Part shown: piece by piece, positions 4,326-25,920 of the stretch
Position numbering within the stretch: the first letter of the stretch is position 1
Layout of the letters: each line of letters opens with the position of its first letter
DNA from: Escherichia phage FV3
Sequence record: NC_019517.1
Strand: one strand, 5' to 3'
DNA: 64,000 nt
Notes under the pieces: model-generated
Seen by the model: the letters and a program-made list of their open reading frames with translations, nothing else
Told to the model about the DNA's origin: nothing
Databases searched by the model: none
Program-made: the position numbers and the translations under genes

Positions 4326-5132
4326 TTGAGCAAGAAAGAGTCCAACGACAAATATTACACAGACCCTGAGTATGCAGAATATCTTGTTGGTAAAGTAAAA
4401 GTTAGGTATGGGAATTGTGCATACGTTGAGCCTTCTGCTGGAAAGGGTTCTTTTTCAAAACTATTTTCAGAGATACTGTCGTACGATTTGGTACCAGATC
4501 CTGAATTTGAAGGCCCAACACCGTGTATTAAGGCAAACTTCTTAGAGGTGTACCCTAAGGCTGATGTCTTCATAGGTAATCCTCCATTCGGCAAAAATTC
4601 GTCTTTAGCTTGCAAGTTCTTTAACCACTGTGCATCATTGCTAGAGCCTGGCGGGGCTATAGCCTTCATCTTGCCACGGACATTTGAAAAAATATTTTTT
4701 GCAAACAAGCTGGACATGTCAATGCACCTTATCTACAGCGAAAGGTGCCCCAAGAACTCGTTTTTACTTAACGACAAACCTTATGACGTGCCATGTGTTT
4801 TCCAAATTTGGGAGAAAAAGGTGTGCAATAGGGATCCTGTAGAGATTGGGGAGAATAAGTTATTTTCTTTTAGCACACCAGATGACTACGACTTCTGCAT
4901 AAGACGTGTTGGGTATAATGCTGGAAAAGTATTGGGGGAGGATGACCCAAAATCTGAAGAATCAACATATTTCATAAAATCTTTAGTTGATGGTGTTGAC
5001 AGAGTGTTTGCTGAATGCTATTCTTCTTTTCAAGAAGAAGCAGGTAAGACTGCTGGAATGAAGAGTATAGGCAAGAAAGAACTACAATACATTTTGGAGA
5101 CTAGGTATGATCAAAAGTATAGACTTGACTAA
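4326..5132 (+). CDS. N6-adenine DNA methyltransferase (motif I then NPPF)
   Basis: EPSAGKGSF (motif I) and IGNPPFGK (motif IV); no in-frame ATG before the motifs, proposed TTG start at 4326 after GGAGG RBS. Confidence 0.6.
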   Translation: MSKKESNDKYYTDPEYAEYLVGKVKVRYGNCAYVEPSAGKGSFSKLFSEILSYDLVPDPEFEGPTPCIKANFLEVYPKADVFIGNPPFGKNSSLACKFFNHCASLLEPGGAIAFILPRTFEKIFFANKLDMSMHLIYSERCPKNSFLLNDKPYDVPCVFQIWEKKVCNRDPVEIGENKLFSFSTPDDYDFCIRRVGYNAGKVLGEDDPKSEESTYFIKSLVDGVDRVFAECYSSFQEEAGKTAGMKSIGKKELQYILETRYDQKYRLD

Positions 5133-12413: not shown

Positions 12414-12692
12414 ATGAGCTGCGAAAAATCTTTTTTCATCATCATTTACGGTAAGGATAACTGCCCACATTGTGTAAGAGCAAAAGAATTTGCAGTCAGT
12501 AAAGGCATACCTTTCGTATACAAGACGCTAGGTGAAGGATACACAAAAGAAGAGCTTATCGAGAAGTGTAGCCCATTTGTTCCCAGAACGTTGCCTCAGA
12601 TCTTCTTGGAAAGCAACCTTGACAGTATCCACATAGGTGGTGCTGACGATTTCATCTCTTTTGTTAAGAATGGTTTTGGAGAGAAAAAGTGA
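12414..12692 (+). CDS. glutaredoxin-like protein (phage NrdC-type)
   Basis: 92-aa ORF with CPHC active site and C-terminal PQIF...IGGADDF typical of glutaredoxins. Confidence 0.7.
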   Translation: MSCEKSFFIIIYGKDNCPHCVRAKEFAVSKGIPFVYKTLGEGYTKEELIEKCSPFVPRTLPQIFLESNLDSIHIGGADDFISFVKNGFGEKK

Positions 12693-13549
12693 AAGTTGTA
12701 AAACGGGACGGTAGAGAAGAGTTTTATAACGGAATTAAGGTGATCAAGGCGGCAGAGTCCGCCTTACTTGAGTCTGGACATACTGAAGAAGAAGCTTACC
12801 GGATTGCCTGTGCGGTTAATGAAGTTGTTGCCAACAATCTGCCAACTGACCAGTGCACGATCTCTGTAAAAAATATCCATATCCTTGTTGAAGATGCTCT
12901 TATGGATATGGGTTTAAAATGTGCAGCCAGAGAATACATCCAGTATAGACAGACAAGAGATAATAACAGAGAGGCAGGTGGAAAACTGCTTGCCGATATT
13001 AGTGGCTTCTTGGATCGTACTTGTGATGAATTTACAAAAGAAAACGCAAATAAGCCTACTAATCATGTACACACTCATCGTGACCTGCTTGCAGGAATCC
13101 TTAGCAAACATCTTGCATCAACACAGATCCTGCCAGACCGTGTCTCAGAAGAGCACAACAAAGGCTTCATCCATGTGCATGATCTTGACTACCTGATCAG
13201 TCCGTTAACAAACTGTTGTTTGGTGAATTATCCGGATATGCTGGAAAACGGATTCAACATTGGCAACGCCCATGTCAGTAAGCCGAAGTCAATAGGGGTT
13301 GCAACAACAATCCTTAGCCAAATCTCTAGTGCAGTAGCTAGTGCTCAATATGGCGGTCAGACCATGAGTCATATTGATCATTATTTGGCACAGTATGCTG
13401 AAGCAACTTATGAGAAGAACCTTAAATTTTGTCAGGAACATTGGTTGCCAGATGCTGAGACTGTTGCAATGCAAATGACAGATAAAGACGTGTTTGATAG
13501 TATGCAAACTTTGCTCTACCAAATCAATACGTTAACTTCTGTCAACGGT
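12689..13549 (+). CDS. nrdD: anaerobic ribonucleoside-triphosphate reductase, exon 1
   Basis: N-terminal ATP-cone (VVKRDGREEFY); reading frame stops 1 codon past proposed 5' splice site; exon ends in T. Confidence 0.75.
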
Positions 13550-14347
13550 TAACAAACTGGCCGTTGTAAAACTCTCCTAACCTCATAAGAGGGGTCGGTA
13601 AATCCGGCTAACGGGGAACGCTAAGGCGAAAGCTATGCCAATCCCGTGACTAGTTCTTACAGGAGTTGGAACGGTTGTAACGACTAACGAAAGGCAGAGA
13701 TGCTTGACAAACATTTCTGAACCGAGTAGTGTAGGGGTTAGTTGAAATACTAACTTCGAAAGGGAGAGACTCTATGAAAAAGATCATTCTTAATGGTGAA
13801 GAATCGAACTACGTGATTGATGAGGTGGGAAACGTATACGGAAAACGTGGAATGCTGCACCCCATATTGTGGGGAGGTTATGGAAAAGGTAACAAGCATG
13901 TTAAACGCCGCTATATGTATTCTTTCAACCACAAAGGTAAGAAGATTCGAATCCAAACTTCAAGGGTTGTTGCCTTGTATTGTTTGCCAGATGTCCCAGA
14001 AGACCCTGAAAACTGGGAAGTGAATCATAAAGATGGCAATACATTGAATGATCATCCGTCTAACCTAGAGTGGGTTTTGCCGGAAGATAATAAGAGACAT
14101 GCTTTCCGAACAGGGCTTTGTCCAGGCAAGTGCTACAGGAAAGTGCAGGCATACCAAGGGAAAACCTTGGTGGGTGAATATCCTTCACTCTATGCCTGTG
14201 CAAAAGCCTTAAATTTGAACGTAGGGAACGTCCATAGGGCTATCGAAGGAAATGCCGAAGGTAAGCATCTCACAATAAAGGGTTATTATCTTATTGAAGT
14301 AGAGTAAGAGATAGTCTGGCCCTGTGGAAACACAGGGGTGGAGACAG
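13550..14347 (+). mobile_element. group I intron in nrdD with 5' catalytic core and 3' HNH homing-endonuclease ORF
   Basis: Intervening ~0.8 kb between two NrdD halves; 13550-13773 is non-coding with group I-like elements (AATCCGGCTAACGGGGAACG, TAACGACTAACG R-like); 3' boundary uncertain by ~10 nt. Confidence 0.6.
13774..14307 (+). CDS. HNH homing endonuclease (intron-encoded)
   Basis: 177-aa ORF with VNHKDGNTLNDHPSNLEW HNH motif; RBS AGGGAGAG. Confidence 0.8.
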   Translation: MKKIILNGEESNYVIDEVGNVYGKRGMLHPILWGGYGKGNKHVKRRYMYSFNHKGKKIRIQTSRVVALYCLPDVPEDPENWEVNHKDGNTLNDHPSNLEWVLPEDNKRHAFRTGLCPGKCYRKVQAYQGKTLVGEYPSLYACAKALNLNVGNVHRAIEGNAEGKHLTIKGYYLIEVE

Positions 14348-15607
14348 CAGACTCCATTCATCACATTAAGTTTAGGGCTGGATACTTCGGTCTTTGGTAG
14401 AATGATTACCAAAAACTACTTGAAAGTTCACAAAATGGGTCTTGGTGAAGAACGGATCACACCTGTGTTCCCTAAAGTGCTGTTCTTCTTAGAGGAGGGT
14501 GTCAACATGAACCCTGGGGATCCTAACTACAATTTGAAACGATTGGCCCTAGAATGCTCTGCAGAGCGGATTTATCCTGACTTTGTTTCTGTTCCGCTAA
14601 ATCGTAAAGTGACAGGTTCAACAGACGGCAAAGTAACAAGCATGGGATGTAGGTCGTTCCTTGGCAAATACGTTACCCCGGAGGGTGATGAAAAATACCT
14701 TGGCAGATTCAACTTGGGTGTTGTTAGCCTTAACCTACCAATGATTGCGGCAAAAGCTAAGACGGAAGGTATTGATTTCTTTGCAGTTCTTGACGAATAC
14801 TTGGATCTTGCATACGAGGCTCACCTTGTAAGGGTTAACCGTCTAAAAGGAACAAAGGCAGGGCAGAACCCTATCATGTGGTGTGAAGGAGCTCTTGCTC
14901 GCCTGGATCCTGAAGAGAGTATCGATAAACTCTTCTATGACGGGTACGCTTCCATCAGTATTGGGTATATTGGTGTGTATGAAACCTGTCAGATTTTGGG
15001 CAGAGAGGGTGACAAGGCTTTAGCTCTTGGAATCCTTCAGCACATGAAAGATGCTTGTGATCGATATAAGAAGGAAAGTGGACTAGCATTTAGCTTGTAC
15101 GGCACACCTTCTGAGAGTTTATGCTATAAAGCTGCAACCTGTCTGGATCGTGAATACCCAGAAGTGTTGAAGCACGAGCATGAATACCTCACCAACAGTT
15201 TCCATCAGCCGGTATGGATCAATAGCTCGCCTTTTGATAAGTGGAAGTATGAGGAAGGTTTTGCTATGATCTCCTCTGGTGGCAACATTGGGGACATAGA
15301 GACACCGAATCTGAAAAACAACTTAGATGCTTTAGAAGCTCTTGTTGATTTCGGATATAAACATATTATGTATTTTGGTATTAACCAGCCTGTGGATAAA
15401 TGTCTTAAGTGTGGATTCTCTGGCGAGTTCAGTGCAACAGCTAAAGGCTTTGTATGCCCAGAGTGTGGAAACCATGAAGAAGGAACGATCAGTGTGATCA
15501 GACGCGTATCCGGGTATCTGTCCAGTCCAAACTCCCGCCCTTACAATAAGGGTAAGCAAGCTGAGGTTATAGAACGGGTTAAGCACTACGGAAGTTGTGG
15601 TTGCTGA
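14348..15607 (+). CDS. nrdD: anaerobic ribonucleoside-triphosphate reductase, exon 2
   Basis: Frame open from 14315; C-terminal zinc ribbon CLKCG...CPECG and glycyl-radical motif RVSGYL. Confidence 0.8.
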   Translation, partial: QTPFITLSLGLDTSVFGRMITKNYLKVHKMGLGEERITPVFPKVLFFLEEGVNMNPGDPNYNLKRLALECSAERIYPDFVSVPLNRKVTGSTDGKVTSMGCRSFLGKYVTPEGDEKYLGRFNLGVVSLNLPMIAAKAKTEGIDFFAVLDEYLDLAYEAHLVRVNRLKGTKAGQNPIMWCEGALARLDPEESIDKLFYDGYASISIGYIGVYETCQILGREGDKALALGILQHMKDACDRYKKESGLAFSLYGTPSESLCYKAATCLDREYPEVLKHEHEYLTNSFHQPVWINSSPFDKWKYEEGFAMISSGGNIGDIETPNLKNNLDALEALVDFGYKHIMYFGINQPVDKCLKCGFSGEFSATAKGFVCPECGNHEEGTISVIRRVSGYLSSPNSRPYNKGKQAEVIERVKHYGSCGC

Positions 15608-15619
15608 TACTTGACAAAA

Positions 15620-15635
15620 GCCACAAGGATGTGGC
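15620..15635 (+). promoter_or_regulatory. intercistronic stem-loop (copy 1 of 2)
   Basis: GCCACA-AGGA-TGTGGC hairpin just after nrdD stop; paralogous hairpin with compensatory changes at 22578-22594. Confidence 0.4.
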
Positions 15636-15670
15636 ATATTGTTGTCACACAGTAAACTAGGAGGTGCAGT

Positions 15671-15787
15671 ATGTCTACAGGTATTTATAAAATTTGCAAG
15701 TGTGGTTGTCATTGCAATCTTCGTTGGTGTAAGGCACTGGACGATTTTATTTGGCATTGTCCTAAATGCGACGCGGAGTATGTATGA
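15671..15787 (+). CDS. small Cys-rich protein (38 aa), putative zinc-binding
   Basis: ATG after AGGAGG RBS; MSTGIYKICKCGCHCNLRWCKALDDFIWHCPKCDAEYV; stop overlaps nrdG ATG (ATGA). Confidence 0.4.
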   Translation: MSTGIYKICKCGCHCNLRWCKALDDFIWHCPKCDAEYV

Positions 15788-16257
15788 ATATTGCCGGGTA
15801 TACAGAGATATCTTACACCGAGGGACCAGGTATTAGGACAGCTTTGTGGGTATCTGGGTGCCCACACGCTTGTCCTGGTTGCTTTAATCAAGCATTTTGG
15901 TCAAAAGATAAAGGAAGAGTGTTCACCGAAGAAGATTTGCAGAAAATTTTGTCGGATTTAGACAATGAATCTGTATGCGGTATTTCTTTACTAGGTGGAG
16001 AGCCTTTGGCTACTTATAATGAGCCAGGTATTATTGACCTTATGAGGAGAATTAAGGAAAAGTTTGGTGACAAGAAAACTATTCTTGTGTATACTGGGTT
16101 CACATTTGAGCATATCTCTAGTGATGTTCTTAAACTGGCTGATATCGTCATTGATGGAAAGTATGTAAAAGATTTACCAACCAAGAAACCATTCCGAGGC
16201 AGCGATAACCAAAGAATGTTTAAAAAGGTAGCAGGAGGTTGGGTTCAGGTTGACTAA
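15784..16257 (+). CDS. nrdG: anaerobic RNR activating protein (radical SAM)
   Basis: CPHACPGC cluster near N-terminus; ATG at 15784 chosen (ORF track start 15766). Confidence 0.8.
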   Translation: MNIAGYTEISYTEGPGIRTALWVSGCPHACPGCFNQAFWSKDKGRVFTEEDLQKILSDLDNESVCGISLLGGEPLATYNEPGIIDLMRRIKEKFGDKKTILVYTGFTFEHISSDVLKLADIVIDGKYVKDLPTKKPFRGSDNQRMFKKVAGGWVQVD

Positions 16258-16260
16258 TTG

Positions 16261-16290
16261 TTGACAAAGTCTTGTTAAGTTGGTTATAAT
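16261..16290 (+). promoter_or_regulatory. sigma70-like promoter (TTGACA-18-TATAAT)
   Basis: TTGACA 16261-16266, TATAAT 16285-16290. Confidence 0.55.
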
Positions 16291-16319
16291 TAGCGTAATG
16301 AAAGCAGAGGAGGTGCCAA

Positions 16320-16433
16320 ATGGCTAAAAAGGCCTTGAAGAAGGCGTACAAAAAAGAGATTGCGCTTGAGCTTAAGAAAAAACACAAGCGTGAAAAGAAA
16401 CATCATGAGGATGAAGAGGGGGTGCAACAGTGA
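16320..16433 (+). CDS. small lysine-rich basic protein (37 aa)
   Basis: ATG after AGAGGAGG RBS; MAKKALKKAYKKEIALELKKKHKREKKHHEDEEGVQQ; stop overlaps GTG of next ORF. Confidence 0.35.
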   Translation: MAKKALKKAYKKEIALELKKKHKREKKHHEDEEGVQQ

Positions 16434-16780
16434 CACAAGAACGTATCGATTTGGCTAATAAGTTTGTAGATCTCATTTTGCCACGGTTAGTTACTCAACA
16501 TGCGGACGCTATTTCTACTAATCTTGATGGCTTACGCCTGATGCTAAATCGCACAGATGACCCTCGTATCCGGGCTGATTTAGAAGCCTCTGCCAACAAA
16601 CTGGAAAAGTTCTTGCAAGTAGACACGCAAGAAGCCTTACACAAGATTATGGTGGAAGGTTTCTCTAAAGAATTTACCATTAAAGAGCTTAAGGAGCTGA
16701 TCCACCAAGAAGAGATGAATATCCGAGTTCAGGCTGTTGCAAGCAGCATGGAAGCGGCTATTGAAAAACTATTGCAGTAA
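16430..16780 (+). CDS. hypothetical protein
   Basis: 116-aa ORF, GTG start coupled to upstream micro-ORF. Confidence 0.45.
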   Translation: MTQERIDLANKFVDLILPRLVTQHADAISTNLDGLRLMLNRTDDPRIRADLEASANKLEKFLQVDTQEALHKIMVEGFSKEFTIKELKELIHQEEMNIRVQAVASSMEAAIEKLLQ

Positions 16781-16818
16781 AAGTACTTGGCACATCTCAA
16801 TCTGAAAGGAGTCCCAAC

Positions 16819-17607
16819 ATGGGTCGAGCTAAAGAAACAAAACGCATGCGTGATGAAGCTAGAGAGGCTCGCAAATCTGATCGCCTGCGTAAGGCTGCTG
16901 AAAAATTTGCTGACGAACGAGAGCACACCGCTCCAGCTCTCCGACCAATGAATAAAAAGCAGCAAAAGTATCTTGATTATCTAGGGTCGCGTAAGATTAT
17001 CATTGTAAACGGTGTGTTTGGATCCGGTAAGACATTCATGGCATCTGCATATGCAGGTGATCTTCTGCGCAAGAACGAGATTGATAAGATCATTGTTGCA
17101 CGTCCTTACGTTCAGACAGGAAAGACTTCAGGATTTAAACCTGGAAATGCAATGCAGAAACTGTGGCCCTATCTTCGAAGCATGATGGACACTATTTGTC
17201 GTCGTGTTGGCAAAGGTGCTTTTGCAGCAATGCTTGGGGACGGTCAGAACAGCCGTATCGAGATTTGTGAGGTTGAAAGCATTCGTGGTCGTAGTTTTGA
17301 TGAACGATGCTTTGTCCTTATTGATGAAGCACAGCAAACTAACCCTGAAGAAATGTTGTCAATTATCACAAGGATCTCTGATCAGGCCACCCTTGTAATT
17401 ATGGGCGATAACAGCCAACGTGACATCCCTGGTAAATCTGGCCTTGCATGGGTGACAGATTTCTTTACTCGTCATCCAGATCCTGAGGTTGGAATGATTA
17501 GCTTTGATAGTCCAGACGATGTCGTTCGTTCCGGGCTGGGTCGTCAGATTGCACTCAATCTTATTGAGGATCGTGCAAATCATATTTGGACTCCTGTTTC
17601 CGAGTAA
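16819..17607 (+). CDS. phoH: PhoH-like ATPase
   Basis: 262-aa ORF; Walker A GVFGSGKTF with PhoH-like context; RBS AAAGGAG. Confidence 0.85.
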   Translation: MGRAKETKRMRDEAREARKSDRLRKAAEKFADEREHTAPALRPMNKKQQKYLDYLGSRKIIIVNGVFGSGKTFMASAYAGDLLRKNEIDKIIVARPYVQTGKTSGFKPGNAMQKLWPYLRSMMDTICRRVGKGAFAAMLGDGQNSRIEICEVESIRGRSFDERCFVLIDEAQQTNPEEMLSIITRISDQATLVIMGDNSQRDIPGKSGLAWVTDFFTRHPDPEVGMISFDSPDDVVRSGLGRQIALNLIEDRANHIWTPVSE

Positions 17608-17612
17608 TACAG

Positions 17613-17640
17613 AAGGGTGGTTATTCCACCCTTAAATATC
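17613..17640 (+). terminator. hairpin, weak terminator
   Basis: AAGGGTGG-TTATT-CCACCCTT after phoH; weak T-tract. Confidence 0.3.
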
Positions 17641-17651
17641 TAAAACAGTTG

Positions 17652-17680
17652 TTGACAAACAGGTGAGCTTTAGATATTAT
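17652..17680 (+). promoter_or_regulatory. sigma70-like promoter (TTGACA-17-TATTAT)
   Basis: TTGACA 17652-17657, TATTAT 17675-17680. Confidence 0.45.
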
Positions 17681-18022
17681 TATTGGACAAAACAAGGAGA
17701 AGGACACAGTATGGCTACAATACAAGAGAGACTGAATAAAATATACTGCCTGTTTGTCTATAACGGTGAGACAATTTTGGCAAATAAGGGATCCAAGAGT
17801 GTGTGGACCAAGGACAGTGGTGGTAACATAATCAACTTAGCGTTGCTACGTGAGCGCAGACACAGATTCTTTATCGAGTCTCGGATTATTGAAAGCAGCA
17901 CCTGCTACAGAACAGGCGATAAAGTAATTGTTGACAATGATACGTGGTATGTGGTAGACTGGCAATCATTGAGCTGTGATGCTTCTGACAATCGTAAGTA
18001 TTCTATAGTGATTGCTAAATAA
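17663..18022 (+). CDS. hypothetical protein
   Basis: 119-aa ORF; alternative ATG at 17711 after AAGGAGAAGG. Confidence 0.4.
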   Translation: MSFRYYYWTKQGEGHSMATIQERLNKIYCLFVYNGETILANKGSKSVWTKDSGGNIINLALLRERRHRFFIESRIIESSTCYRTGDKVIVDNDTWYVVDWQSLSCDASDNRKYSIVIAK

Positions 18023-18082
18023 AGGTAAATGTGAATCAGGTTTAAATAAATAGCTTTCAACTTCCAATATTAAGGATTTCTC

Positions 18083-19132
18083 ATGAATTTAACACCTCGC
18101 AGCACCATGGTACACGGCATGAAAGAAAAACAGAACGGTTTCGAACCTATGAGTAACAAAATGTTTGGTATGCCTGGTGGTATTATGGAAACATACAGCT
18201 ACCCAACACCTGTTGTTGACCACGTTCTTTATATCGACGATTTGGACGACCTACAAGATCATATGTCTCGTCTACAGACGATCCGTATGGCTCAGCCAGA
18301 AGAAAGTATCCGTGTAATCATTAACAGCCCTGGTGGTTGCGTTCACATTGCTATGGCGTATTTGCAGGCATTCCGCGAGTCTCAGGCAAGCGTTGTTGTA
18401 CACGCTGAAGGGATGTGCTGTTCAGCAGGAACAATCTTATGGCTAGGTTGCAAAGAACGAACTGTGGCTCCGGACACAGAATTTATGTTCCACTATTATC
18501 AAGGTGGCACTTATGGTAACGGCGTGAACATGAATACCCAGGTCAACTACTGGAAGAAACGTTTTGAACGCCTGATCGAAAAATACTACGGTGGGGTGTT
18601 AACAGAAGATGAGATCGCATCCATCACAGCTGGCGGTGAAGTGTGGTTAGATGGAGAAGAGCTGGCATCTAGAACTGGTGCTATCATTCTGGACGATGAA
18701 AACATTCAGCGCATTCAGAATGGACAGAAACCGAAAAAGCTTTTGGCAAAAAGTGATGAAGAAGGTGTGCTAGGCGAAGCAGGCCTGCCAGAGATTCACC
18801 AATGCACATCTTTGGACGAGCTGGTTCATGCTGTTGAGTCTGCAAAAGAAAATGGTATGAAAGGTGATGTTCACACTGTGTTCCTGAATCTGCAGATGGA
18901 GAGTGGTGAGACCGTTAAGATTGCACTGGGTGAGATTACCTCGGAAGATCTGCAGCGATTCTCTGTGGTAGAGCTTCAGGACATTTTGTCCCAATTGAAA
19001 ACTACCCTGAACGGAGGTGAAGAAGTTCAGGTGAAAGATAAGACTCGCAAGCGTCTGGTGGACAATATTATTAAAACAGCAAAAGAGCTCAATGAAAAAA
19101 TCCTGGGCGCAGGAATTGTCGAAGAAGCTTAA
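18083..19132 (+). CDS. ClpP-like serine peptidase (S14 family) with C-terminal extension
   Basis: INSPGG, GMCCSAGT (catalytic Ser) and MFHYYQ (His) motifs; ~150-aa acidic C-terminal extension. Confidence 0.65.
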   Translation: MNLTPRSTMVHGMKEKQNGFEPMSNKMFGMPGGIMETYSYPTPVVDHVLYIDDLDDLQDHMSRLQTIRMAQPEESIRVIINSPGGCVHIAMAYLQAFRESQASVVVHAEGMCCSAGTILWLGCKERTVAPDTEFMFHYYQGGTYGNGVNMNTQVNYWKKRFERLIEKYYGGVLTEDEIASITAGGEVWLDGEELASRTGAIILDDENIQRIQNGQKPKKLLAKSDEEGVLGEAGLPEIHQCTSLDELVHAVESAKENGMKGDVHTVFLNLQMESGETVKIALGEITSEDLQRFSVVELQDILSQLKTTLNGGEEVQVKDKTRKRLVDNIIKTAKELNEKILGAGIVEEA

Positions 19133-19145
19133 ACATTAATTCTAA

Positions 19146-19168
19146 AGCCCTCTTCGGAGGGCTTTTAT
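19146..19168 (+). terminator. intrinsic terminator
   Basis: AGCCCTC-TTCG-GAGGGCT followed by TTTAT. Confidence 0.5.
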
Positions 19169-19183
19169 GATCTGGAGATTTGC

Positions 19184-19717
19184 ATGACTTGTGCTAGAAA
19201 ACCTGATGAACAACGTAACGCTTACGACGAGTATGTGACACCGGAGTGGTGTGCAGAAGGGCTGTATGACCTTATTCCGTTCCCAGAAGACTGGACCTAC
19301 TTAGAGCCTTGCAGGAATAGCGCTTCAGGTGTGTTCTACTCCCGTATGCCGTTAGGATCTGCATGGGGAGAAATTCAAGAAGGTGTTGACTATCTGAATA
19401 CAGAATACAACCATGTTGACTGTATTATCACCAACCCGCCGTACAGCCTGGCTCGTGAGTTTGTGGACAAGGCGTTGAAAGATGCCGACGTAGTTATTAT
19501 GCTTTTGCGTCTTAATTTTCTGGAAAGCAAGACCAGATTTGAATGGTGGCTTGATAATGCACCTACCACTGTGATCACAATATCTAAGCGTCCGTCATTC
19601 CAATCCAATGGTAGAACGGATGGGCAGGCATATGCCTATTTTGTATGGGACAAGAAAAACCGTCTAGGCTTGCCGCCATTTATGTGGTTGGCACCACCAG
19701 AGGCAGACTTGAAATGA
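19184..19717 (+). CDS. DNA methyltransferase (NPPY motif), probable N6-adenine
   Basis: 177-aa ORF with DCIITNPPYSLAREF. Confidence 0.5.
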   Translation: MTCARKPDEQRNAYDEYVTPEWCAEGLYDLIPFPEDWTYLEPCRNSASGVFYSRMPLGSAWGEIQEGVDYLNTEYNHVDCIITNPPYSLAREFVDKALKDADVVIMLLRLNFLESKTRFEWWLDNAPTTVITISKRPSFQSNGRTDGQAYAYFVWDKKNRLGLPPFMWLAPPEADLK

Positions 19718-19998
19718 AAATAAGTGCTAAGGACAAGTTGCACCAGTTAGCGCTAAAACGTCCTGTAACGCTTCCTGACGAGCTTAACTCTATTTATGAT
19801 GCGATTGTAGGGGAGATACAAAATAAAGCGTTAGCAGGCTTTCTGGGATGCGGATTTTCGATAAATCTTCCATCGCACCTCTCAGACTACTTCCCACACA
19901 TCGTTGGGGATTTGAGGGCAGGAGGTCTGCAGGTGGATGTTGTTGGCATCTCTCCGGAGAAAAATAACACGGTTGCCTACTTGACAGTAACCTGGTAG
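19714..19998 (+). CDS. hypothetical protein
   Basis: ATG at 19714 overlapping upstream stop (ATGA); 94 aa. Confidence 0.4.
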   Translation: MKISAKDKLHQLALKRPVTLPDELNSIYDAIVGEIQNKALAGFLGCGFSINLPSHLSDYFPHIVGDLRAGGLQVDVVGISPEKNNTVAYLTVTW

Positions 19999-20026
19999 TG
20001 GTGTATTTTGTTTTCAACAAGAGGGG

Positions 20027-20275
20027 GTGTCATCTATGTACAAGTCATTTTCAATCTACTCAAGACAGGCAAAACACTACACGGAGATTCTGATCACTCA
20101 GAAAAAGTCTGTAGAAGGTGAGTGGGAATATCATCATAAAATGTTGCGTCCAGACTGGGTTTTTGATAGACTTATTGCTATGATTCCTCTTGGAGAAGTA
20201 TACCCTCTGACAGGTCATAGGGATGCTTGGGATTTAATTGATTACATAGATTCATTTAAGGAGCCTGGTGTATGA
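20027..20275 (+). CDS. hypothetical protein
   Basis: 82-aa ORF. Confidence 0.45.
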   Translation: MSSMYKSFSIYSRQAKHYTEILITQKKSVEGEWEYHHKMLRPDWVFDRLIAMIPLGEVYPLTGHRDAWDLIDYIDSFKEPGV

Positions 20276-20670
20276 AGATTGAGATCACTAAAGAAGGTAA
20301 GAAAGTGTCTGGCGATTATGCAACAGTAATTCGGGATGTAATGTTTGAAGTAACCCAGATTGGTACGTCTAAGGTTGGTCAAACGGTAAGTGTGCAAGGT
20401 AATATTGCCACAGGTGAAAAGATAATCATTGTGATCAAAGGACAAGACCCTGTGGAAGGAACAGTGGGCCGAGGAGGCTACCTGTGCATTTCTGAAGAAC
20501 CGCGTATGCTGGTTGCTGATGACTCCACAGGTAAAAAGCGGGTATGTAACACGGACGAGGTGATGATTATCTATCCAGTCAACCCAGATGATCCGGCAAC
20601 ATGGATTGTGGGAAATGAAATCTTCTCTTTAGAAGAGTTATCCTTCCCAGCTCCGCGCTCTGTTCAGTAA
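20272..20670 (+). CDS. hypothetical protein (possible small acidic family member)
   Basis: 132-aa ORF starting MKIEIT. Confidence 0.45.
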   Translation: MKIEITKEGKKVSGDYATVIRDVMFEVTQIGTSKVGQTVSVQGNIATGEKIIIVIKGQDPVEGTVGRGGYLCISEEPRMLVADDSTGKKRVCNTDEVMIIYPVNPDDPATWIVGNEIFSLEELSFPAPRSVQ

Positions 20671-20709
20671 TAATTTATCTTACCAGGGACGGTAGAAGTA
20701 GGAGGTAGC

Positions 20710-20943
20710 ATGAAAGTTAAATTTCTTACAGATTTAGGGTACCCTTCCTTGGTTGACTGCGTTGGTAAAATTGTGGAAGCAAAACGACTATCTGCAAACG
20801 ATAATGTTGTCATGGTTAAGGGAAAAGATTTACTATCTGCAGGTGCAGAGTCTGGCAGGATCTCTCCTGACTATACGTATTACCTGTCTTTAAGTAATCT
20901 ACCAGAACGAGGCGGCAAAGGCCTTGAAGTTGTGGAGGAGTGA
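20710..20943 (+). CDS. small acidic protein, MKVK family
   Basis: 77 aa; MKVKFL... ending LEVVEE; RBS GGAGG. Confidence 0.5.
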   Translation: MKVKFLTDLGYPSLVDCVGKIVEAKRLSANDNVVMVKGKDLLSAGAESGRISPDYTYYLSLSNLPERGGKGLEVVEE

Positions 20944-21467
20944 CAGGTATGCTGCTAGTTGATTGGAAAGATTTTTATGGCGATAAAGACCCGAAAGCCT
21001 TTATATATAAACCTTGGAGATACTCAGAGAGTCAAATTGCTGCAATAAACCTTACAGCAAAGCGCCGAAAAATTATCGAAAGTAAATACAGGTACGCTCA
21101 GCTAGTGGCTGGTGTTTCTCCACAGGTAGAGAGTTTTGTGCTTAAACTGTACGAAAAGTTTATGAGTTACGATCTGTCATTCGTGAAGGTGGGTGAGGAT
21201 TTATCCCCTGGTAACAACGTAACACGTTGGAAAGTTTCATGCGACAAAAAACTTCCGGTAAGTATTGAGGTGTGTCGATACTGGGGGTATCATGAGTGTG
21301 GCTTTTATGACTACCATGATGTAGAAATAAAGCCACGCAATCATCTAAGCGACCCAGAAAAAGATTACTTGAAGCATGTGATTCTTTCCATGTTTGGAGG
21401 GTATATCACAGAGAAAAATAGCGAAGACAGAATATCCTTTCTTAACAGTTTGAACCGGGAGATGTAG
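20940..21467 (+). CDS. hypothetical protein
   Basis: 175-aa ORF. Confidence 0.5.
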   Translation: MTGMLLVDWKDFYGDKDPKAFIYKPWRYSESQIAAINLTAKRRKIIESKYRYAQLVAGVSPQVESFVLKLYEKFMSYDLSFVKVGEDLSPGNNVTRWKVSCDKKLPVSIEVCRYWGYHECGFYDYHDVEIKPRNHLSDPEKDYLKHVILSMFGGYITEKNSEDRISFLNSLNREM

Positions 21468-21468
21468 T

Positions 21469-21705
21469 ATGACTATAGACACTGTGCTGGTTTGGTATTG
21501 CGCATTGACCTTTCTGACAATGGTTGTTTTAGCAACTCTTTGCATCATATCTTGTAGAAAAATTAAGTTTGACGACTTTATAACTATAATCACTGCCGCA
21601 CCTTTTTGGCCTGTTGTTCTCTTCATTGCGGTTATGTGCTTGGTGGATCACTGTAAAACCGTCAGGAAAATGAAGGAGGCAGATAAGAATGGTAACAGTG
21701 ACTGA
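21469..21705 (+). CDS. small membrane protein
   Basis: 78 aa with two hydrophobic segments. Confidence 0.45.
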   Translation: MTIDTVLVWYCALTFLTMVVLATLCIISCRKIKFDDFITIITAAPFWPVVLFIAVMCLVDHCKTVRKMKEADKNGNSD

Positions 21706-21907
21706 AACTGTTTATACTGTTCTTAGGGAGATTGCATTCTATACAGACCTTAGTTCAGTATCTTCATGGGAAAAGAGTGTGTATTTAAAATGGTGCGTGA
21801 AATTAGAGGGGACCTTCTAATGTTTCAAGCCATGTTTATTGAAATGCTCTCCGGAGTATTACTGCTGGTAGCCATTTTGGGTGGTGCGGCGCTAATGTAT
21901 AATTATC

Positions 21908-22111
21908 TTGAAAAAGGGGACAGTAATGACAAAAAATAAATCCTTAGAACAGGCTGAAAACCTTCTCCACGAGCTGGTAAAGGAGTGGAAAGTTGAATAC
22001 TCAGATTTTAATGCAAGAGAGGGGGAAGATTATTGGCCTACGGAGCGCTCAGAGGGAGAGTGGTATCAAGATTTCATAGAATGGTTATATCAGACGTGCG
22101 ATGAGGGGTGA
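21908..22111 (+). CDS. hypothetical acidic protein
   Basis: 67-aa ORF; likely ATG start at 21926. Confidence 0.4.
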   Translation: MKKGTVMTKNKSLEQAENLLHELVKEWKVEYSDFNAREGEDYWPTERSEGEWYQDFIEWLYQTCDEG

Positions 22112-22569
22112 CGATGTTTGTTAAATATGTAAAAACGTGCCTCAACAACCTTGGTAGAGAGCATTGGTACACCTTGCTTGAAAAAGGAGAAATTTTAACA
22201 AAATCTGGAAAGATAACTCTGATACCTTTGGATGATAAAGACCCGTCACTACTTGTCATAGATGATTACGTTACAGGTGTGTCGTACGAGGTCTCTGTGG
22301 AGAGGTTAATACGCAGATCTGGAGGGCCTTATGACCGAAGAGAGTATGTTTTCGATTCTGTTACAGAGAAGGAGGATCCGTCTCTAATGTTTAGGATGGT
22401 AATCAGGGATATGAAATCATCTATAAATAGGATTGTAAAGGACATTAAGGAGCCTTTTAGGGTAAAAGTTAAGAAGTTTTTTGATTCTAAGATTAACATA
22501 CTCGCCGTTGTGCTAGGCGTAATTCAACTTCTGTTAATTTTGCACTATCTTGAACTGTTGTTCAAGTAG
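22108..22569 (+). CDS. hypothetical protein with C-terminal TM segment
   Basis: 153-aa ORF. Confidence 0.5.
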   Translation: MTMFVKYVKTCLNNLGREHWYTLLEKGEILTKSGKITLIPLDDKDPSLLVIDDYVTGVSYEVSVERLIRRSGGPYDRREYVFDSVTEKEDPSLMFRMVIRDMKSSINRIVKDIKEPFRVKVKKFFDSKINILAVVLGVIQLLLILHYLELLFK

Positions 22570-22577
22570 TGTGCAAC

Positions 22578-22594
22578 AAGGCACAAAGGATGTG
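22578..22594 (+). promoter_or_regulatory. intercistronic stem-loop (copy 2 of 2)
   Basis: GGCACA-AAGGA-TGTGCC immediately after stop of 22108..22569; compensatory to 15620-15635. Confidence 0.4.
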
Positions 22595-22629
22595 CCATGA
22601 TTAAATAAACTAAGAAAGAGGTAGAGAGA

Positions 22630-22977
22630 ATGCCAAAGATTAAGTCGATATTAATGTGGGCAGCTGTTGTGGCTTTTGTAGGATACTGGACTTGGGAAAC
22701 TGAATTAAAAGATATCGGGTATACCAGTCTTGAGAGCAAGGCATGCATTGGCATAACCGATGCATTCAGGCAAAATGCTATGGATCACGAATGTGTCGAT
22801 GCAGATATAGATGAGAAACTGTCTAAGGACAAGGATTTTTACCATGGTCATGCCTTGCTTGATAGTGGTGACACTGTAGAATTCTGGTCGTGGTTCCGTG
22901 AAGATGGAACAATAAAGACAGCAGTAAAGATTTCCAACAAAGAGTTAATGCTGTTGCAGCAGAAGGAGGTGCAATGA
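22630..22977 (+). CDS. hypothetical protein with N-terminal TM/signal segment
   Basis: 115-aa ORF; RBS AAGAGGTAGAGAG. Confidence 0.5.
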   Translation: MPKIKSILMWAAVVAFVGYWTWETELKDIGYTSLESKACIGITDAFRQNAMDHECVDADIDEKLSKDKDFYHGHALLDSGDTVEFWSWFREDGTIKTAVKISNKELMLLQQKEVQ

Positions 22978-23261
22978 TCTGGATATCCTACACTGATGGC
23001 ACCATGCTGTATACTGCAGGTACTAGGTATGAAGTTCAGGAGGACGATAAAAAATTTATCGTAAAAACATTTGACAAGGACGAAAACCTTTTGTTAGAAT
23101 TGACTTACAAGGTTGGGGAGGTATCTAGCATCCAATTGGATTGCGGTCATAAAGATAACCCACTCAAGAAACCTGGGGTAGGTAAAGCTTCAGAAGAACG
23201 CCTGTCTCGTATTGCAGAAAGCGTTTCTGCACAAAAATCTAAGAAGGGGACTAGAAAATGA
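22974..23261 (+). CDS. hypothetical protein
   Basis: 95-aa ORF. Confidence 0.45.
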   Translation: MIWISYTDGTMLYTAGTRYEVQEDDKKFIVKTFDKDENLLLELTYKVGEVSSIQLDCGHKDNPLKKPGVGKASEERLSRIAESVSAQKSKKGTRK

Positions 23262-23452
23262 AAAACTTACGTTTTAACACTTATTACTACAACACTTTGA
23301 ATGATTTGTATTATATTATTCGAAGTAAAAGTCCTGAAACAGTCCTATTCTGCCGCGAACCTTTCAAAGGGGAGGAAGTAGAGTCTGAGATGAATGTTAG
23401 CCATATTACCTCTTTGTTGCTCTCAGGTGCAATGGAAGAAGCAATATTCTAA
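23258..23452 (+). CDS. hypothetical protein
   Basis: 64-aa ORF. Confidence 0.4.
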   Translation: MKNLRFNTYYYNTLNDLYYIIRSKSPETVLFCREPFKGEEVESEMNVSHITSLLLSGAMEEAIF

Positions 23453-23470
23453 ACCAGGCGGGAGGGTTTT

Positions 23471-23656
23471 ATGAAGCACTATTGCCTGTTTGGTAGGATG
23501 GGTGTAGAGTGTGATTGGGTTTTCTTAAAACTTGTCAGCATCCGAGAGTCAATCCCAGAGGAAGAGCAAGAAAGTGAGCTGATGTCATGGATCAGCTATT
23601 ACGGCAACACTTTCCGGTATGTCAAAATGGAAGGGCTGCCAAGCGAGGATGATTGA
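23471..23656 (+). CDS. hypothetical protein
   Basis: 61-aa ORF. Confidence 0.4.
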   Translation: MKHYCLFGRMGVECDWVFLKLVSIRESIPEEEQESELMSWISYYGNTFRYVKMEGLPSEDD

Positions 23657-23751
23657 TTATGATTGCATCAATATTAACGTTTATGGGTGGCGTGGCGGTC
23701 GGATTCATTATTTGCCTGTTTATAGTGATTATGTCTATGCGAGGCTGACTT

Positions 23752-24036
23752 ATGAAACTGTTCGAGTGGTTTAAAAAGTTTAAATACCGGGCCGTTGCTG
23801 TATCGAAATGGACTGTCCGCTGGGTGGACAATGATGGAACACAAATTCCAGGTGATCAGGATACCGGATACTGGGTTATGATGGAGAACGGATTTGGGAA
23901 AAGGAAGTTTAAATGTGTTGGTGCTCCTACCCTTTTAAATGTTAGAAGTGTGCCAGGGTACAGCACTCTGGTTGTTTGGGAGCTATCCGGTGTTCCTCCT
24001 GCCAATGTGCAATACTTGCCAAATTCAGAAAAATAA
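23752..24036 (+). CDS. hypothetical protein
   Basis: 94-aa ORF. Confidence 0.45.
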   Translation: MKLFEWFKKFKYRAVAVSKWTVRWVDNDGTQIPGDQDTGYWVMMENGFGKRKFKCVGAPTLLNVRSVPGYSTLVVWELSGVPPANVQYLPNSEK

Positions 24037-25602: not shown

Positions 25603-25920
25603 ATGCAGATTGAAATTACTGGCAACGTAGAGATCACTGAAGGTATGGTGTCTTTCATTTCCCACAAAATGTCCAAACTGGAGCGTTTGCACCCATCTGC
25701 CAACTATGCACGTGTGAGTGTAAAAGTTGAAAATGATCACCAGGAAGTTATGGCTTTTATTTTTGACAATTCTGGGAAAGAAGTTATCGCCAAAGCTAAA
25801 GGTAGCGATGCTTACGAGGCAACTGACCGTATGGTGGATGTTGCAGCACGCCAGTTGGCTAAATGCGGTGGAAAGAAAGGTAAGGGAAAAGGTAAAGTAA
25901 AGATTGACTTTTGGGATTGA
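25603..25920 (+). CDS. hpf: ribosome hibernation promoting factor homolog (HPF/RaiA/YfiA family)
   Basis: 105 aa; MQIEITGNVEITE...KLERL...VSVKVE...AKAKGSDAYEATDRMVDVAARQLAK aligns along its length with bacterial HPF as recalled; Lys/Gly-rich tail. Confidence 0.75.
   Translation: MQIEITGNVEITEGMVSFISHKMSKLERLHPSANYARVSVKVENDHQEVMAFIFDNSGKEVIAKAKGSDAYEATDRMVDVAARQLAKCGGKKGKGKGKVKIDFWD

Follow-up and report, generated by a model that had tools for sequence, protein, structure and literature searches.

We describe three short intercistronic hairpins, H1, H2 and H3, in Escherichia phage FV3 (a stretch of 64,000 nucleotides (nt) from sequence record NC_019517.1, here called the window), which are very probably selected RNA elements of the sense strand and which carry, in their loops, the core of the sites bound by the host regulator CsrA. 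A CsrA-family protein probably binds these hairpins, and translational repression of the downstream cistron is one possible consequence, with both the sign and the size of that effect proposed tentatively; on balance, we lean towards a combined reading in which sense-strand hairpins are bound by host CsrA and modulate how the downstream cistron is translated or how stable its message is. In E. coli, as in many other bacteria, CsrA acts as a master post-transcriptional switch that signals carbon and growth status and governs glycogen metabolism, motility, biofilm formation and virulence. As a kind of element, CsrA hairpins are already well known; in the limited collection of literature searched, we found neither the hairpin sequence (unrelated primers only) nor CsrA sites in lytic phage mRNAs, and the literature search on transcriptomics of rV5-like phages gave nothing useful. 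The features concerned are the following (hairpin loops in square brackets; bp, base pairs; ORF, open reading frame; SD, Shine–Dalgarno sequence; MFE, minimum free energy).

15611–15640, plus strand: sigma-70-like promoter match, TTGACA-18 nt-CATATT with a TG extension (scan score 10/12 plus TG), with H1 in its spacer
15620–15635, plus strand: H1, GCCACA[AGGA]UGUGGC, a perfect 6-bp stem with a 4-nt loop, present in the MFE and centroid folds
15658–15673, plus strand: SD AGGAGG (15658–15663) and ATG 15671, the presumed regulated initiation region after H1
20680–20695, plus strand: H3, UUACC[AGGGAC]GGUAG, 3 nt upstream of the SD UAGGAGGU of ORF 20710–20943 (gp119-like)
22580–22596, plus strand: H2, GGCACA[AAGGA]UGUGCC, a 6-bp stem with a 5-nt loop, present in the MFE and centroid folds
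22618–22632, plus strand: SD GAGG and ATG 22630, the start of a predicted membrane-like ORF of 115 amino acids (aa)

A sequence-only reading had drawn attention to the hairpins after the nrdD stop and after ORF 22108–22569, and both strings are present in the window and perfectly paired, with stems that differ by one swapped pair (C-G in H1, G-C in H2, at stem position 2) and loops that keep AGGA, that of H2 being one A longer; H3 was overlooked, as was the location of H1 inside a conserved promoter-like site, TTGACA-N18-(TGn)CATATT. Rather than being copies that diverged from each other, H1 and H2 more probably represent separate occurrences of a single motif. H1 begins 12 nt beyond the nrdD stop (TGA, 15605–15607), and from its end it is 22 nt to the SD AGGAGG and 35 nt to ATG 15671, which opens a Cys-rich 38-aa ORF (15671–15787) whose end overlaps the start of nrdG (ATGA, 15784; assigned from its Fer4_12/Radical_SAM domains). 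Similarly, H2 begins 10 nt after the stop of ORF 22108–22569 and ends 21 nt before the SD GAGG (22618–22621) and 33 nt before ATG 22630, the 115-aa product of which had no Pfam match. The distance to the ribosome-binding site is ~22 nt rather than the ~25–30 nt originally given, and the end coordinate had been placed 2 nt short. Both hairpins form in the MFE folds of their intercistronic RNAs, and local folding z-scores were −3.2 for H1 and −2.7 for H2.

Evidence at scale for selection on RNA structure came from viral contigs in IMG/VR, which we scanned for the pattern G-S-CACAAGGATGTG-S-C with S..S either complementary or, at identical composition, non-complementary (at least 120 stretches, with flanks clustered by BLAST; for environmental contigs, both the clustering and the gene calls rely on heuristics). 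Counts for this AGGA-loop pattern refer throughout to the matches listed. Complementary clusters numbered 45 (19 C..G and 26 G..C), against 7 non-complementary ones (binomial P = 3.5 × 10−8), whereas a complete scan with a GAGA loop of the same composition yielded 25 families against 13, including several evident terminators (Fisher P = 0.009 for the difference in complementary excess). One cluster was mixed: contigs L039 and L041 carry GCCACA..TGTGGC where L148 carries GGCACA..TGTGCC, at the same position just past the stop of a homologous gene, an orthologous compensatory change identical to the difference between H1 and H2. The proposal that the H1/H2 difference itself reflects RNA-structure selection was weak as it stood, resting on a single swap between non-orthologous loci; the cluster counts, the orthologous swap and the strand bias now provide its support. 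Specifically, 27 of the 43 evaluable complementary clusters had a sense intercistronic layout (a same-strand ORF end at most 40 nt upstream and an SD and start at most 90 nt downstream), with median gaps of 11 nt from the stop and 22 nt to the SD plus start, and 2 of the 43 were antisense, while 6 of the 7 non-complementary matches lay inside long ORFs, as expected of chance. The exact 16-nt sequence of H1 recurs at sense intercistronic sites of unrelated viral contigs. In one large family (group A, 49 pairs) the hairpin accompanies the downstream gene and in others (3 pairs) the upstream gene, such that it behaves as an autonomous intercistronic module. Since the base following the stem is not conserved in the viral contigs, the CAT common to H1 and H2 is not part of the general element. 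Strand specificity together with pairing covariation favours an RNA element over a duplex-DNA operator and also, where a general explanation is concerned, over a promoter.

Among close relatives, the hairpins stand out by invariance. Positions 14000–24000 matched 123 phage records at 90–97% identity (megablast), almost all Vequintavirus (rV5-like E. coli myophages), and our comparison set comprised 12 relatives at 77–99% identity, including the complete relative JES2013 (136.9 kb); a related-locus search with a 153-aa protein as query gave a single IMG/VR relative. H1 did not vary among 11–12 relatives and sits in a 31-nt invariant block (15610–15640), and H2 occupies 19 invariant columns (22580–22598) in 13 sequences, flanked by variable ones (8 of the 10 columns between stop and hairpin, and 4 of the 4 downstream). 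The search for more copies and covariation that had been suggested turned up H3, further copies in JES2013 and copies in other phages; the H1 and H2 loci, being invariant, showed no covariation among close relatives. At H3, the third stem pair changes from A-U in most relatives to G.U in phage Aya and G-C in the IMG/VR relative, the most distant one, where the loop is AAGGAU; every relative stays paired, a retention (six distinct sequences, equalled in 175 of 500 shuffles) that is consistent with selection for pairing and statistically not strong.

Because the 64-kb window holds ~120 distinct perfect 6-bp hairpins, the existence of H1 and H2 alone proves nothing. Hairpins of the form stem-CA(A)RGGAUG-stem are much rarer: complete JES2013 has three, all sense, intergenic and just upstream of ribosome-binding sites, compared with 0.8 on both strands and at any position in shuffled JES2013. 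These are H1, H2 and GGCGGCA[AGGA]UGCUGCU, immediately before the SD of gp005 (4389–4406 of JES2013 segment L071, minus strand), the last of which is missing from the MFE fold of its region. A permissive intergenic scan of JES2013 added two more, H3 and ACCAC[ACGGAC]GUGGU, which sits in the spacer of rV5 promoter P090; the latter hairpin lies outside the window, before gp084 (JES2013 71169–71184; about 21269–21284 of segment L072). A candidate third copy in the window, GCCACA[GGTA]TGTGGC at 1714–1729, is within a coding region and has no GGA loop, and was treated as chance.

The resemblance to CsrA sites is closest at H1. The E. coli CsrA consensus from systematic evolution of ligands by exponential enrichment (SELEX) is RUACARGGAUGU (PMC4347634), in which ACA and GGA are invariant and the GGA occupies a hairpin loop, and H1 contains ACAAGGAUGU, the exact conserved core; it is the sole site on either strand of the window that matches ACARGGAUGU with 0 mismatches (chance expectation, 0.3 per window), with CC at the two 5′ consensus positions (RU). 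H2 fits the consensus with a 1-nt loop insertion, and H3 shares only the A(N)GGA core. In all three, GGA is displayed in the apical loop (AGGA, AAGGA and AGGGAC, respectively), and crosslinking and immunoprecipitation with sequencing found CsrA bound in vivo to A(N)GGA in apical loops (PMC5207318). Hairpins of host CsrB and CsrC (NC_000913.3), namely ACACC[AGGAU]GGUGU, ACUUC[AGGAU]GAAGU, UCA[AGGA]UGA and CGCC[AGGA]GGCG, have the same architecture as H1, and none of the CsrB/CsrC hairpins comes nearer to the consensus than 2 mismatches, versus 0 for the H1 core. Furthermore, the SD downstream of H1 holds a second GGA (15659–15661), 32 nt from the loop GGA, and the SD after H3 (UAGGAGGU) likewise contains GGA, ~13 nt from the loop GGA; Mercante et al. 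reportedly gave, in 2009, a bridging range of 10–63 nt for the CsrA dimer. Neither the window nor JES2013 nor any of the remaining loci examined was found to encode a CsrA homologue, so the partner would be host CsrA; the hosts of the relatives are E. coli, a carrier of the Csr system, with csrB and csrC annotated in NC_000913.3. The original suggestion of a processing, stability or translation-control element with an important AGGA loop is compatible with these observations and is less specific than a hairpin equivalent to the CsrA SELEX optimum. Rfam gave no match at the hairpins in the window, at either gathering or E ≤ 10 thresholds.

Bacterial genomes provide a circumstantial link between the hairpin and CsrA that is independent of the phage data. 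Across 185,579 species genomes, G-S-CACAAGGATGTG-S-C returned at least 91 complementary and at least 30 non-complementary matches, some of which are coding coincidences (integrase and HemB 'GHKDVA' motifs). The non-coding complementary matches, among those listed, were mostly from Gammaproteobacteria (Pseudomonas, Steroidobacteraceae, Xanthomonadales, Methylococcales, Thiotrichales and Pectobacterium). In Pseudomonas (four loci), the hairpin follows rpsO-pnp, ~3 kb beyond the S15 leader, and a terminator comes right after it; in Steroidobacteraceae-like genomes (six loci), it is followed by CCGCCGCCGCAGGUGGCGG and a terminator; and in several other lineages (L377, L399, L442, L392 and others) it is flanked by two further conserved hairpins. 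A Thiohalomonadaceae contig (L409, positions 1–160) opens with at least 4.6 tandem 17-nt units of GGCCACAAGGATGTGAC; GAC[AUGGAU]GUC and then an intrinsic terminator come next, and a prepilin-like gene lies downstream. Judged by its layout, this array is a candidate for an unannotated Csr/Rsm sponge RNA; neither the array nor any of 18 bacterial loci had an Rfam match.

The mechanism that we propose would begin with polycistronic early/middle mRNAs that carry the hairpins and display A(N)GGA in each apical loop. A CsrA dimer would bind the loop GGA and, at H1 and H3, also the SD GGA 32 and ~13 nt downstream, respectively, thereby blocking or tuning access of the 30S subunit to the next cistron; the cistrons affected would be the 38-aa ORF with translationally coupled nrdG, the gp119-like ORF 20710 and ORF 22630. 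Expression of these cistrons would then track the Csr state of the host, that is, free CsrA versus CsrA sequestered by CsrB/CsrC. Bound CsrA could also shield the mRNA from RNase E or change the access of Rho. H2 has no SD GGA, and any effect there would have to come from single-site binding, from protection of the mRNA or from modulation of Rho. The mechanisms listed for CsrA in PMC5207318 include repression of translation, Rho-dependent termination and RNase E masking.

Several points weigh against a role for host CsrA. Both CsrA binding and the effect on expression were deduced from sequence; for the IMG/VR contigs with the hairpin, which are environmental, BLAST against cultured phages gave no informative host assignment; and the CsrA consensus resembles an SD, which makes a ribosome-related reading conceivable. 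The SD after H2 (AGAGGU) lacks GGA, and the AAGGA pentaloop form of H2 was not enriched in other viral contigs (9 versus 6 families in IMG/VR). When the loop-closing pair was varied (GCCACNAGGANGTGGC), C-G was about as frequent as A-U among the matches listed, with chance levels that depend on composition, and many of the C-G-closed hairpins listed look like opposite-strand terminators. Permissive A(N)GGA-loop hairpins in JES2013 intergenic regions were only mildly enriched (10 sense and 2 antisense, versus 6.2 ± 2.6 in shuffles). The invariant block around H1 (15610–15640) coincides with the −35 to −10 span of the promoter-like site, and its conservation may be partly at the DNA level. Finally, nrdD runs directly into nrdG, with an overlap, in Phapecoctavirus, Seunavirus and Justusliebigvirus, and H1 has no counterpart after nrdD there, which indicates that the H1 spacer and the 38-aa ORF are specific to Vequintavirus.

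We weighed these observations against other explanations of the hairpins. An element that acts through structure only, as a 3′-exonuclease barrier, an RNase entry or processing site, or a weak pause or terminator setting the ratio of upstream to downstream cistron mRNA, appears fairly unlikely. It would suit the position 10–12 nt past stop codons (median 11 nt in the other phages), the terminator-like flag that H1 received in a scan (its tail, AUAUUGUUGU, passes only a lax terminator scan, with a 6-bp stem), the canonical terminator GAGAGCA[AGGA]TGCTCTC plus T-run at the alternative nrdD 3′ end of phages WM and PMBT16, and the cases (L039/L041 and phages nom and ECML-10) in which the hairpin remains with the upstream gene when the downstream gene changes. 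However, a pure stability element needs neither an invariant loop nor an enrichment of AGGA over same-composition GAGA; the stems are short (6 bp, about −8 to −10 kcal/mol); the GC-rich stem plus U-tract of an intrinsic terminator was found at neither H1 nor H2, the latter having no U-tract; a T-run follows the hairpin in just 5 of the 45 viral clusters; and in the group A contigs the hairpin moves with the downstream gene. We also regard as unlikely another RNA-binding partner, whether a phage protein or the 30S subunit, for which the hairpin would serve as a standby site or a decoy for the anti-SD. The phage encodes many small proteins without an assigned role and a RaiA-like factor, the loop AAGGA with the 3′ arm GUG resembles the extended SD AAGGAGGUG (from which AAGGAUGUG is one position off), and the hairpins end ~34–36 nt before start codons, near the 5′ edge of the footprint of an initiating 30S subunit. 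A standby SD would, though, be expected as GGAGG and unpaired, the ACA...UGU flanks are specific to the CsrA SELEX consensus, and the identical 16-mer occurs both in viral contigs that are unrelated and in non-coding regions of Gammaproteobacteria, a tandem array among them, which favours a widely conserved host factor over a phage-specific protein.

DNA-level explanations fared less well. That the motif is the conserved spacer and extended −10 (TGTGnCATnnT) of host sigma-70 promoters, with an incidental hairpin, is quite improbable, even though H1 lies within a promoter match whose −35 to −10 span is the invariant block, the surrounding gene block is rich in strong TTGACA promoters, rV5 promoter P090 has the same layout with a similar hairpin (ACCAC[ACGGAC]GTGGT) in its spacer, and many rV5 promoters contain TGGTAnAAT. 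H2 has no −35, and its putative −10 differs among relatives (CATGAT, CATAAT, CATAGT and CATAAC), with the critical last T, T(−7), lost in two of them while the hairpin is unchanged; bases after the stem are not conserved in other phages; and a promoter would leave unexplained the selection on base pairing (45 versus 7 clusters) and the conserved left arm, since spacers normally vary freely. The H1 promoter-like site is not in the rV5 promoter table. As judged from its sequence, the H1 stretch may nevertheless also work as a promoter, a second function at the DNA level; if that promoter fires, its transcripts would begin downstream of the hairpin and escape CsrA, whereas read-through transcripts would keep the site. 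A palindromic duplex-DNA operator, recognized by a protein dimer that could be a repressor of the phage or a factor of the host, would account for the near-perfect inverted repeat CACA-N4-TGTG and for the classical operator position of H1 between −35 and −10, but is very improbable given the bias of 27 sense versus 2 antisense clusters, the asymmetry of the conserved loop, and half-sites that change symmetrically at an otherwise free position, as pairing predicts and unlike independent half-site recognition; moreover, the arrangement is the inverse of CRP half-sites, and no FNR site was seen on reading the sequence. Chance resemblance of two among many short hairpins in an AT-rich phage genome hardly deserves credence: the number of perfect 6-bp hairpins in the window and the 0.3 exact ACARGGAUGU sites expected there by chance would allow it, but not the invariant islands in relatives, the sense and intergenic placement of all strict JES2013 copies, or the large-scale covariation and positional bias in other phages.

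Viewed as predicted CsrA sites, the phage hairpins can be placed among known RNA elements. Like lambda boxB (nut), they combine a short stem with a purine-rich loop of 4–5 nt in early phage transcripts and would be bound by a protein. Lambda boxB has a 5-bp stem with a GNRA-like GAAAA/GAAGA pentaloop and an adjacent boxA, and is bound by the N protein; on reading the sequence, we saw no boxB pentaloop, no N protein and no boxA-like CGCUCUU near H1 or H2. T4 RegB sites and the early intercistronic hairpins of T-even phages similarly place SD-like purine motifs between early cistrons and control the next cistron. RegB needs GGAG, which is absent from all three phage loops. Closer parallels are the CsrA/RsmA sites of mRNA leaders (for example, E. 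coli glgC and Pseudomonas hcnA), which share the short stem closed by C-A...U-G, the A(N)GGA in a 4–6-nt loop and, at H1 and H3, the second, SD-borne GGA 13–32 nt downstream, the classical layout for dual-site repression; those sites are in chromosomal 5′ leaders, whereas the phage hairpins, with predicted binding, lie between cistrons of a virulent phage mRNA, 10–12 nt past a stop. The individual hairpins of the CsrB/CsrC (RsmX/Y/Z) sponges are of the same kind, but the sponges are discrete non-coding RNAs with 9–22 hairpins and their own terminator, and the phage hairpins are single, within mRNAs and without an Rfam match. A precedent in which host CsrA acts on an extrachromosomal or mobile-element gene at an internal operon cistron is its reported repression of cel, the lysis gene of ColE7 (PMC2896534), although that gene belongs to a plasmid colicin operon and not to a lytic phage.

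The neighbourhood of H1 shows further variation. In JES2013, annotation places it in a long plus-strand early/middle gene block (nrdA, nrdB, grx, nrdD, the 38-aa ORF, nrdG, phoH, clpP and dam, then many small ORFs). In nom and ECML-10, an insertion of ~1 kb begins straight after the ...TGTGGCA of H1, inside the putative −10; in nom (positions 1877–2842 of locus L007), its 321-aa product combines T5orf172 (GIY-YIG-like) and treble-clef zinc-finger domains and is probably a homing endonuclease of the free-standing type. H1 there precedes this inserted gene (SD AGGAAA), which leaves the 38-aa ORF without a hairpin. A similarly sized ORF lies between nrdD and the 38-aa ORF in WM (1902–2834 of L011) and PMBT16 (1605–2462 of L009), and an HNH-like ORF is also directly behind the hairpin in IMG/VR contig L041. 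The terminator of WM (L011, 1803–1820) and PMBT16 (L009, about 1420–1445), which have a different nrdD 3′ end, has its AGGA loop closed by CA..UG and is followed by a TTGACT promoter-like site. Two candidates at the hairpins were rejected: an outer helix around H1 in the MFE fold (UUGACAA/UUGUC) is broken in JES2013-type relatives and hence not conserved, and minus-strand ORFs from the CAT, together with mini-ORFs from the hairpin AUG (MWHIVVTQ* and MCHD*), have no conserved length in relatives and no usable SD spacing. In one environmental phage family (13 contigs), every contig carries the hairpin twice, as GCCACA..TGTGGC and as GCACA..TGTGC, and behind each copy come a conserved TAACTA(C/T)AACTATAA(A)GAG and then a start codon; this conserved sequence could be a phage-specific promoter adjoining the hairpin.

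Elsewhere in the same block, nrdD itself (12689–15607) is interrupted (ORFs 12689–13552, 13774–14307 and 14324–15607) by a 177-aa ORF with HNH_3 and I-HmuI NUMOD-like domains, a homing endonuclease; Rfam at gathering threshold found no group I intron at the split gene, which is unbroken in JES2013 and annotated as joined, or with other insertions, in several relatives. ORF 25603–25920 is homologous to JES2013 gp136, annotated as a RaiA/HPF-like ribosome-associated translation inhibitor, that is, a phage ribosome hibernation factor. The window has two other intercistronic hairpins: AAAGCCCUC[UUCG]GAGGGCUUU at 19144–19165, after clpP, corresponds to rV5 terminator t122, with a UUCG tetraloop, and AAGGGUGG[UUAUU]CCACCCUU at 17613–17633 comes after phoH. 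Among the matching records, ~20 unannotated 'Campylobacter phage' entries (MG0656xx) are >90% identical to this E. coli Vequintavirus, and their names or hosts look doubtful.

For the wider set of phages, we tentatively suggest that unrelated virulent lineages may have independently acquired a near-optimal CsrA hairpin, GSCACA-AGGA-UGUGSC, as a portable intercistronic module, either to read the Csr state or to titrate CsrA via abundant early mRNA; a high-affinity site on an abundant phage mRNA could in principle have the latter effect. The idea is directly testable, as the 16-nt hairpin is easily mutated and present in cultured coliphages, and the hairpin would give a compact regulatory part for engineering, a possible sequence cue for phage host prediction and possibly a starting query with which to look for further Csr/Rsm sponge RNAs like the Thiohalomonadaceae array. 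If the proposed role is correct, it would connect gene expression in lytic phages, through a cis-regulatory element, to a global post-transcriptional regulator of the host, such that phage protein synthesis would be wired to host physiology through a host RNA-binding protein, or phages would manipulate that protein.

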